From a virus (lineage: Duplodnaviria; Heunggongvirae; Uroviricota; Caudoviricetes), in the IMG/VR virus record IMGVR_UViG_2541047798_000001: a stretch of 9,836 bases of DNA, one strand, 5' to 3'. The notes under the pieces are model-generated. The model was given only the letters and a program-made list of their open reading frames with translations, was not told the DNA's origin and did not search any database. Positions 8,923 through 9,521 of this stretch are shown here, piece by piece. The position numbers were made by a program, and so were the translations under genes. Numbering within the stretch: position 1 is the first letter of the stretch; every line of letters starts with the position of its first letter.

Positions 8923-9125
8923 ACGGGTCCTTTCCGGCATATGGACCCGTTACGGGGCGGCGACCTCGCGCGTTTTCACTATTTATGAAAATTTTCCGGG
9001 ATCCATGTCCGGTTTCTCTGCAAGTTAACCATATGAAAAATATAAAAACATGCTTTCTATGAACCGGACATGCGCAAAAAACAGACACTAAAACCGGACA
9101 TCGTACCCGTTAACCGGAAGTGTGC
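8923..9125 (+). other. Lambda-type cos site 1 (cosQ-cosN-cosB, rightward): cosN 12-nt cohesive-end sequence GGGCGGCGACCT at ~8955-8966
   Basis: ACGGGTCCTTTCCGG...CCCGTTACG|GGGCGGCGACCT|CGCGCGTTTTCACTATTTATGAAAATTTTCCGG is near-identical to the lambda right-end/left-end junction as recalled. cosB carries a 10-mer AACCGGACAT once inverted (9005-9014), twice direct (9062-9071, 9092-9101) and a variant (9112-9121), with an AT-rich block between, mirroring the lambda R3-I1-R2-R1 layout. Confidence 0.8.
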
Positions 9126-9294
9126 AAAAATCACACGCATTGCTGCGCGTGATTAACAATTTATCGGCTTTACTGTTCTGTATAGGCTGGGTGGCGTCAT
9201 GCCGTAGCCGTTCTCCGTGCCAGCATGGAATAATCCGTAGTTACAGAGCGGTAAAGTTAAAAATCACTTTCTGTTACGCCATCAAATACGCGAT

Positions 9295-9521
9295 ACAACA
9301 ACCATGTGTTTTTACAAAACCATTTGATATCATTGAATTTTTTCACATTAATGACATCAAAATACATCGTAAGGTTGTTGTATTTATTTTATTTTTACCT
9401 TACTTATCAATTAGATATACCAAACAATTAAACAACAACCACCCCCTCAAAAAATCTCATAAATAGCGAAAAACCGCGAGGTCGCCGCCCCGTAACGGGC
9501 CATAATTCCAGGAAGGACCCG
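9295..9521 (-). other. Lambda-type cos site 2 in inverted orientation (leftward): cosN complement AGGTCGCCGCCC at ~9479-9490
   Basis: Reverse complement reads GGGTCCTTCCTGG...CCCGTTACG|GGGCGGCGACCT|CGCGGTTTTTCGCTATTTATGAGATTTTTT, very close to lambda cosN plus the proximal cosB. Distal cosB holds a different 9-mer, ACAACAACC / GGTTGTTGT, at ~9432-9440, 9373-9381 and 9295-9303. Confidence 0.75.

Follow-up and report, generated by a model that had tools for sequence, protein, structure and literature searches.

Two convergent lambda-type cos sites with different phage-like cosB regions in an EcCICFT073-family satellite of Escherichia coli

The 9836-bp virus record IMGVR_UViG_2541047798_000001 (hereafter the window, meaning the whole stretch of DNA analysed) is the packaging-module-bearing part of an ~11 kb phage-inducible chromosomal island (PICI) of the EcCICFT073 family, a lambdoid satellite of Escherichia coli. 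Near one end it has two cos sites that face each other, and these are the subject of the present analysis. The window extends from the integrase gene at its other end to a small gene just beyond the cos pair. Pfam assigns the island genes as an integrase, a DUF927 primase, SSB, a PerC-type regulator, a major capsid protein like E of lambda and a decoration protein like D, and a 69-aa open reading frame is excisionase- or regulator-like. The layout expected of a cos PICI of the EcCICFT073 type, unidirectional and ~10–20 kb in length with a terminal integrase, an AlpA-type regulator and primase or replication functions, is present. The gene order is identical to that of EcCICFT073, and the 137-aa and 93-aa proteins encoded on the two sides of the cos pair are 93% and 85% identical to their CFT073 counterparts. 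In E. coli SCU-172 a copy of the element occupies ~11.0 kb between 17-bp direct repeats, located between yljB/cspD and clpS. This is not a new kind of system.

Each cos site is a complete cosQ-cosN-cosB unit of lambda-type architecture. cos 1 lies at 8925–9121 on the plus strand, and cos 2 at 9520–9295 on the minus strand. The 12-nt cohesive-end sequence of lambda, GGGCGGCGACCT, occurs exactly twice in the window, where 0.04 occurrences would be expected by chance, and none of 200 shuffled sequences contained two matches. The two occurrences are the cosN of cos 1 (8955–8966, plus strand) and that of cos 2 (9479–9490, minus strand). They are convergent, 524 bp apart from start to start with 512 bp between them, as a preliminary description made from the sequence alone had stated; that description proves right in all points of substance. 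In both units cosQ is GGGTCCT, placed 30 bp before the first base of the cohesive end (8925–8931, plus strand, in cos 1 and 9514–9520, minus strand, in cos 2), which is the spacing found in lambda (cosQ at 48473–48479). The cos units generate inverted repeat arms of 72 nt (8924–8995 and 9450–9521) that are 83% complementary and have the cohesive-end sequences in their middle. Both have CCCGTTACG where lambda has CAGGTTACG, a shared variant that had been noted in the preliminary description and is correct on direct comparison. Over bp 1–49 cos 1 is identical to lambda at 44 of 49 positions, and cos 2 at 39. Beyond bp 50 the similarity of the two sites to each other, and of each to lambda, falls to the level of chance, and different repeats are found there.

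The cosB region of cos 1 (8967–9121, plus strand) we term X. It has an R3-like repeat CATGTCCGGTT at 9004–9014 (bp 50–60, inverted), an R2-like repeat AACCGGACAT at 9062–9071 (bp 108) and an R1-like repeat at 9092–9101 (bp 138). Four copies of the repeat had been claimed. Three exact copies of AACCGGACAT are present, at 9005–9014 (minus strand), 9062–9071 and 9092–9101, and the fourth, AACCGGAAGT at 9112–9121 (bp 158), is degenerate. The cosB region of cos 2 (9295–9478, minus strand) we term Y. Its R3-like repeat GGTTGTTGT is at 9440–9432 (bp 51–59), followed by an inverted R2-like repeat at 9381–9373 (bp 110–118) and an R1-like repeat at 9303–9295 (bp 188–196). Here the predicted three copies of ACAACAACC are all exact (9295–9303, 9373–9381 on the other strand, and 9432–9440; chance expectation 0.11). 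The first repeats (bp 50/51) and the second (bp 108/110), which are oppositely oriented, match the R3 (50–65) and R2 (107–122) positions in the phage 21 record. Both units thus have cosQ, cosN and a cosB in which R3, a spacer, R2 and R1 occupy the lambda/21 positions.

The segment between the two cosN sites (8967–9478, 512 bp) carries a trace of a lost gene. A search for homologs of terS or rpp across the window found nothing beyond 22 codons of the 3′ end of rpp at 9186–9251 on the plus strand (tblastn E = 1.4e-5 and 73% identity to the C-terminus of RppA; also detected by blastn). Neither site in the window is followed by a Nu1-like gene, as had been stated and as one would expect of satellite copies. 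The absence of a terS-like gene is secondary, an rpp gene having been lost. With rpp gone after cos 1, the window belongs to the island family but lies outside its Rpp-dependent packaging mechanism. At 9166–9180, on the minus strand, comparison with locus L003 (8020–8150) shows the final 15 nt of an rpp gene in reverse complement (tacagaacagtaaag), adjoining cosB X in just the way seen in CFT073. These terminal 15 nt are in fact present twice in inverted orientation, at 9166–9180 and 9243–9257, flanking the 3′ remnant. The junction looks like the right halves of two ordinary cassettes (…rpp-X and …rpp-Y) joined head to head. A 114-aa open reading frame (9122–9466, plus strand) crosses the rpp remnant in another frame and continues through cosB Y. 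No genome annotation calls it, and in all likelihood it does not represent a gene.

Misassembly can result from inverted repeats, and some metagenome contigs do end in cos arms. Two from metagenome 3300045988 (L013 and L029) end in or just after the arm, 20 nt and 145 nt past cosN. Such ends are expected if the assembly graph branches there, owing to mixed orientations or to several cassette types with the arms in common. Yet the same 751 bp is present in nine complete E. coli genomes with 97–99.9% identity, and the convergent layout is also found in the finished CFT073 genome and in many independent IMG/VR contigs. The arms measure no more than 72 nt, and both sites lie between conserved island genes with no Nu1 or A genes nearby. 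We therefore give practically no credence to the idea that the pair is an assembly artefact or the chance abutment of two unrelated elements. Misassembly, and the possibility that one site belongs to a neighboring prophage, had both been named in advance as explanations that would undo the finding, and neither is borne out.

The architecture is neither new nor very surprising. Two functional cos sites, cos1 and cos2, have already been reported for EcCICFT073, the model island of the family and of PICIs in Gram-negative bacteria (Fillol-Salom et al. 2018, ISME J, PMC6092414; 2019, Mol Cell, PMC6739421), and in CFT073 they are convergent and in the same position. In that genome cos1 (plus strand) is followed by rppA at bp 102, with cos2 on the opposite strand 739 bp away and facing it. 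As CFT073 and most of the sampled relatives are convergent, a paired convergent cos is the norm of the family and not a new arrangement. The orientation of the sites is absent from the main texts of these papers, and the words ‘inverted’ and ‘orientation’ do not occur in that of 2019 (PMC6739421). The same papers report that a phage cosB could not be identified in EcCICFT073. Our literature search found no paper describing cos sites of chromosomal islands as inverted or invertible.

Both cosB regions have close relatives in phages. Over 137 nt cos 1 shares 97.1% identity with the cos of the lambdoid phage PhiR12_1, which lies directly upstream of the Nu1 gene; the similarity spans cosN through the third repeat. 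No paper on the PhiR12 phages was found in the literature search. cos 1 also corresponds to cos2 of EcCICFT073 (96% identical), joined here to the left cosQ instead of the right. Over 161 nt cos 2 shares 98.8% identity with a prophage cos of strain CFSAN061770, and the identity with that of an O111:H8 prophage is 91%. Here the similarity starts at cosN and extends as far as the last repeat (R1), ending just before the ribosome-binding site of terS. The cosQ-to-cosN spacer of both sites is the island's own version and not that of the phage.

The TerS proteins of the X and Y phage groups are 22–23% identical over their N-terminal 65 aa, and 87–89% identical over the remainder. In lambda Nu1 the N-terminal region forms the winged helix-turn-helix domain that binds cosB (PMC9026076). 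The DNA-binding domains therefore differ while the rest is alike, which indicates one terminase chassis with two DNA specificities, and the island has one target for each. Potential helpers are common. X-type terS is found in 1166 of 5426 complete E. coli genomes (about 1 in 5), and Y-type terS in 247. SCU-172 has both an island 99.9% identical to the cassette region of the window and a resident prophage with the same X cos. Among the matches listed, three other host strains of the X/Y island type have an X-type terS and one has a Y-type.

We consider it probable that the two phage-type cos sites allow the island to use helpers of two specificities. The use of helpers with different cosB specificity was among the functions first suggested for the pair, and the homology of its cosB regions to two lineages with unrelated TerS DNA-binding domains supports it. 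Our statements on the function of the sites draw on such homology and on the published experiments with EcCICFT073. On this basis, induction of a helper would lead to excision and replication of the island. The helper terminase of either group would bind its cognate cosB through the TerS DNA-binding domain and nick the common cosN, and we infer that both sites can be cut in this manner. Packaging would run away from cosQ, that is rightward from cos 1 and leftward from cos 2. The facing site should be passed over, having the wrong polarity for termination; in lambda, termination is known to be polar and to need cosQ ahead of cosN (summarized in PMC9026076, PMC6739421). When the head has been filled, the terminase would cut again at a subsequent copy of the site from which it started, with about four ~11 kb units in a head of lambda size, as has been proposed for EcCICFT073 (PMC6092414). 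The island would thus be independent of Rpp, and able to ride helpers of two specificities.

The sites might instead serve mainly to titrate or misdirect the helper terminase, so lowering the yield of phage. They are exact mimics of the helpers' cosB, interference with helper packaging through Rpp is known in the family, and an island lacking Rpp might need another route of interference. Yet any recognition of a complete cos on a replicating ~11 kb concatemer will lead to packaging, so that decoy and packaging are not true alternatives. Moreover cosQ, which is needed only for the termination of packaging, is kept at both sites with the lambda spacing. The analysis gave no direct support to a decoy function, which had been raised at the outset, and we regard it as improbable as the main role of the sites.

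The distribution of the X/Y segment bears on whether it is a working module. We compared 11 islands of this kind, comprising the window, two genome loci and eight IMG/VR loci. Over the inner 512 bp ten of the 11 differ by 0–5 nt, and the remaining one (L069) by 9–12 nt. Differences in the left 2 kb reach 46 nt (165–173 nt for L069), and those in the right 350 bp reach 86 nt. Conservation of the inner segment against diverged flanks argues for the recent spread of a working module. The segment is found at two insertion sites at least, yljB/clpS and tRNA-Pro/yejM.

We have weighed this against the view that the pair is debris of the deletion of rpp from a cos1-rpp-cos2 module, such that at least one site has gone out of use in packaging and the island is heading to immobility. 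A number of observations favor that view, or otherwise weigh against the use of two helper specificities. rpp has been reduced to its 22-codon remnant with the odd 15-nt inverted duplication at the junction, and its loss could mark a decaying island. The arrangement without rpp is rare, found in 11 of the 5426 complete genomes (9 + 2). In EcCICFT073 transfer of the island by lambda and phi80 requires cos1 and RppA, and deletion of cos2 raises transfer, showing that a second cos can be a cost. Those experiments used lambda, phi80 and a phage-21-type prophage, none having an X or Y cosB (PMC6092414, PMC6739421). A scan for the I1 site of IHF, using the exact consensus WATCARNNNNTTR only, gave no match between the R3- and R2-like repeats of either cosB, where the intervals are A+T-rich, and is uninformative. 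The strains that combine an island with a matching helper are anecdotal cases, and in the X-type prophage of SCU-172 (L091, 3519–5436) terL is annotated as frameshifted, so this prophage may not be a competent helper.

Against the interpretation as a relic, the 512-bp segment is nearly identical in islands whose flanks have diverged and which occupy different insertion sites, implying recent horizontal spread. All the R-like repeats are intact, in sequences 97–99% identical to the cos of live phage lineages. In the published work both EcCICFT073 cos sites, including the X site cos2, enable the transfer of a plasmid by lambda and phi80, and deletion of the two together abolishes transfer of the island (PMC6092414, PMC6739421). 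On balance a relic seems unlikely, although we take it more seriously than a decoy, and we continue to favor the use of two helper specificities.

The segment between the cos sites exists in either orientation. Six of the 11 X/Y islands have it one way and five the other. In strain STEC2018-607 a stretch of 598 bp is 98% identical to the window, yet inverted relative to the flanking genes. The cosQ halves have stayed with the flanks and everything inside cosN has been exchanged, with breakpoints in a shared 25-bp core, CCCGTTACGGGGCGGCGACCTCGCG. The left 2 kb of two further islands (L016 and L017) differ by just 2 nt, and their segments have opposite orientations. L017 lacks two substitutions that are common to the other inverted copies, indicating at least two independent inversion events.

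Inversion is also seen in cassettes that carry a gene. Among the 64 IMG/VR loci with both flanking genes none of about 50 gene-bearing cassettes was flipped, but a reading that such cassettes never flip is wrong, as flipped rppA and terS cassettes exist in other genomes. A CFT073 cassette inverted in silico had full-length natural counterparts. In WP4-S17-ESBL-08 (L092), which has an island at the CFT073 site, the inner 727 bp is identical to that of CFT073 and inverted, with rppA on the minus strand, and strain PM4-5 has a flipped terS cassette. Searches specific for the junctions found 69 genomes with the CFT073 orientation and 15 that are flipped, counts that are not phylogenetically independent. 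Junction-specific queries were used because a threshold of ≥80% coverage is unreliable, the wrong orientation reaching ~82% through the inverted arms. Both orientations are found in all three cassette classes.

In three of four events examined the breakpoints are inside the identical core around cosN, and in the fourth (L017) their position is ambiguous. In L092 one breakpoint is at cosQ, the left arm having the right-type spacer out to cosQ, which is a conversion tract. The right-type cosQ-cosN spacer is now present in both arms of L092 and the left-type spacer has been lost, a non-reciprocal outcome. The pattern of breakpoints fits homology-driven recombination between the inverted arms, which would flip the segment and let it spread between islands. 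It is plausible that breaks made by terminase at cosN contribute, possibly by stimulating this recombination. Two routes are conceivable, either repair of a break from the facing copy, or re-ligation of the internal fragment. An internal fragment cut at both sites would have two identical overhangs, so it could be re-ligated in either orientation. The conversion tract of L092 needs homology-driven repair, so that an origin of the inversions by cutting and re-ligation alone is not established. We tentatively suggest, as something we think possible and short of probable, that the cosN-bounded segment is a terminase-dependent mobile and invertible module, in which breaks made by helper terminase at the facing cosN sites, or the annealing of the identical cohesive ends, drive both inversion and the swapping of cosB, terS and rpp between satellites and phages. 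On that view packaging specificity would be shuffled with cos sites as the recombination joints.

The inverted repeats could alternatively be the ends of a site-specific invertible element that toggles some function. The presence of both orientations in every cassette class, and of opposite orientations in the two islands with left flanks 2 nt apart, might be expected of such a switch. But no invertase is adjacent, and the island's sole recombinase, a tyrosine integrase, is encoded at its opposite end. A flipped gene-less X/Y segment still presents two convergent cos sites, so that nothing obvious changes on inversion. Nor are the breakpoints fixed, being mostly in the cosN core but at cosQ in L092, and homology-driven recombination gives a better fit. 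A programmed switch is thus very unlikely.

The wider family was surveyed using 80 IMG/VR loci that encode the 137-aa protein; the 64 with both flanking genes and four reference loci make up 68 islands, of which about 54 have a convergent cos pair. Typically a specificity gene belonging to the island, either rpp or a Nu1-like terS, comes after the left site, and the right, facing site has a phage-type cosB. Twelve loci have an Rpp-type cosB and rppA with X facing, and nine have an Rpp-type cosB and rpp with a Y-like site facing. The largest class, of 22 loci, has its own cosB with a Nu1-like terS of 180 aa and a phage-21-like or other site facing, and shorter terS forms with a single cos account for seven more. 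The gene-less X/Y cassette is found in the orientation of the window in six loci, and in the opposite one in 4–5. There are seven loci with a single variant cos and one chimera.

The cosQ-side halves are constant, with one left type and one right type in every paired island aligned, and the content of the cassette changes immediately past cosN and CGCG. From these alignments the islands have evidently captured the left ends of phages time and again, taking up cosN-cosB and in some cases the start of terS as well, with the join at cosN every time. The chimera (L073, UViG_2718217885_000003, cassette 60–480) has an X cos and the first nine codons of a phage Nu1 gene that run on, seemingly in frame, into the 3′ half of rpp, and a Y-like site faces them. 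The cassette has the look of a phage left end in the course of being captured. In L049–L051 and L080–L083 (cassettes of 385–386 bp) there is one cos-like site with another sequence at the position of cosN (…ACGGGGCGGGAGCGGCGCAGAATTTCAC…), followed by an X-like cosB and the truncated start of an X-type Nu1 gene. The variant cosN may provide another cohesive end, or the site may be dead. In L066 and 21 similar loci a full 180-aa Nu1-like terS follows the left cos (205–747 of the cassette in L066). The DNA-binding domain of this TerS is 49% identical to that of the Y-type phage TerS, its cosB is 78–83% similar to Y, and the facing site is phage-21-like, matching at 13 of 16 positions of the R3 region.

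The cos pair is placed between two island genes that anchor the cassette. To the left is the gene for the 137-aa protein (8479–8892, plus strand; phrog_1999, E = 4e-64), which is present in all 80 related loci. The protein resembles the C-terminal scaffold part of a head maturation protease (phrog_53, E = 7e-10, profile positions 494–567 of 583). To the right is the conserved gene for the 93-aa protein (9555–9836, plus strand; phrog_1561, function unassigned), some alleles of which are named ‘phage head-tail connector protein’ by NCBI PGAP. Neither protein had a match in NCBIfam, and sequence searches of the PDB with both were likewise empty, from which we conclude that neither is a relative of Rpp. 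A hairpin resembling an intrinsic terminator, with a 9-pair stem (8896–8917) and a run of T (8896–8923 overall, plus strand), closes the capsid operon and abuts cosQ. A search of the cos region for sigma-70-like promoters found none, and Rfam returned no RNA family in 8700–9836.

The satellite has a partial head-assembly set, consisting of the E-like capsid (7063–8118), D-like (8131–8466) and scaffold-like (8479–8892) genes. We considered a capsid-forming PICI, which would encode a complete set for head formation and packaging (terminase, portal, protease, capsid and connectors), and ruled it out, as only these three genes are found, with neither terminase nor portal. Satellites of this type are said to be packaged in full-size helper heads, and the capsid genes that such islands commonly have are not required for transfer (PMC10111431). 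A PerC-family gene precedes the capsid genes in the island (6234–6602), and the O111 Y-type prophage has another immediately upstream of its cos (L005, 3141–3455). Helper and satellite may have a common control of late genes through PerC-family regulators.

The work on EcCICFT073 left open why the island keeps a second cos whose deletion improves transfer by lambda. A testable answer is that the second site faithfully reproduces the cos of a further lambdoid lineage, itself common, whose phages could be used without Rpp. The window would stand at the extreme, having borrowed both of its cos sites and lacking any specificity gene. If this is true, the helper range of these satellites can be read from their sequence, which would be of use in forecasting the spread of elements that mobilize virulence genes, among others, in E. 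coli. The inversions, together with the unusually conserved inner segment, point to an exchange of packaging specificity by way of cassettes with cosN as the joint, and this bears on the co-evolution of satellites and phages. Three aspects appear to be undescribed in the EcCICFT073 literature: that sites of the cos2 type copy the cos of identifiable phage lineages almost exactly, that there is a subfamily without rpp that has two phage cos copies, and that the cos-bounded segment inverts and travels between islands.

The closest known system is EcCICFT073 itself (PMC6092414, PMC6739421; Murialdo & Feiss 2022, PMC9026076), which is of the same family with the same gene order and a cos pair between the same two genes. 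The window differs in having neither an rpp gene nor an Rpp-type cosB. The X cosB is on the right in CFT073 and on the left in the window, where the second site has the Y cosB. The likeness to the cos of lambda and 21 lies in the identical 12-nt end, the cosQ at 30 bp and the repeats at bp 50–60 and ~108–118, but the cosB repeats of the window are unrelated in sequence to those of lambda, no terS or terL follows, and there are two facing sites. Cosmids and the satellite phage P4 are likewise small replicons packaged via the cos of a helper, but with one cos and one helper type. The cos-type SaPIs (SaPIbov5, and SaPIbov4 with two putative cos sites; cited in PMC6092414) similarly have the helper's cos, no terminase gene and a capsid homolog. 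However they are Gram-positive elements that use HNH-dependent cos phages and have unrelated sequences, and there is no evidence there of two sites from two helper lineages, or of inversion. Lastly, the helper-embedded PICI 11capE, from the same broad group, and its lambdoid helper 50icd have a 258-bp stretch of the cos region in common with 90% identity (PMC10111431), which provides a precedent for the direct copying of a helper cos. That is a single shared stretch, and paired convergent sites, differing specificities and inversion are not described for it.

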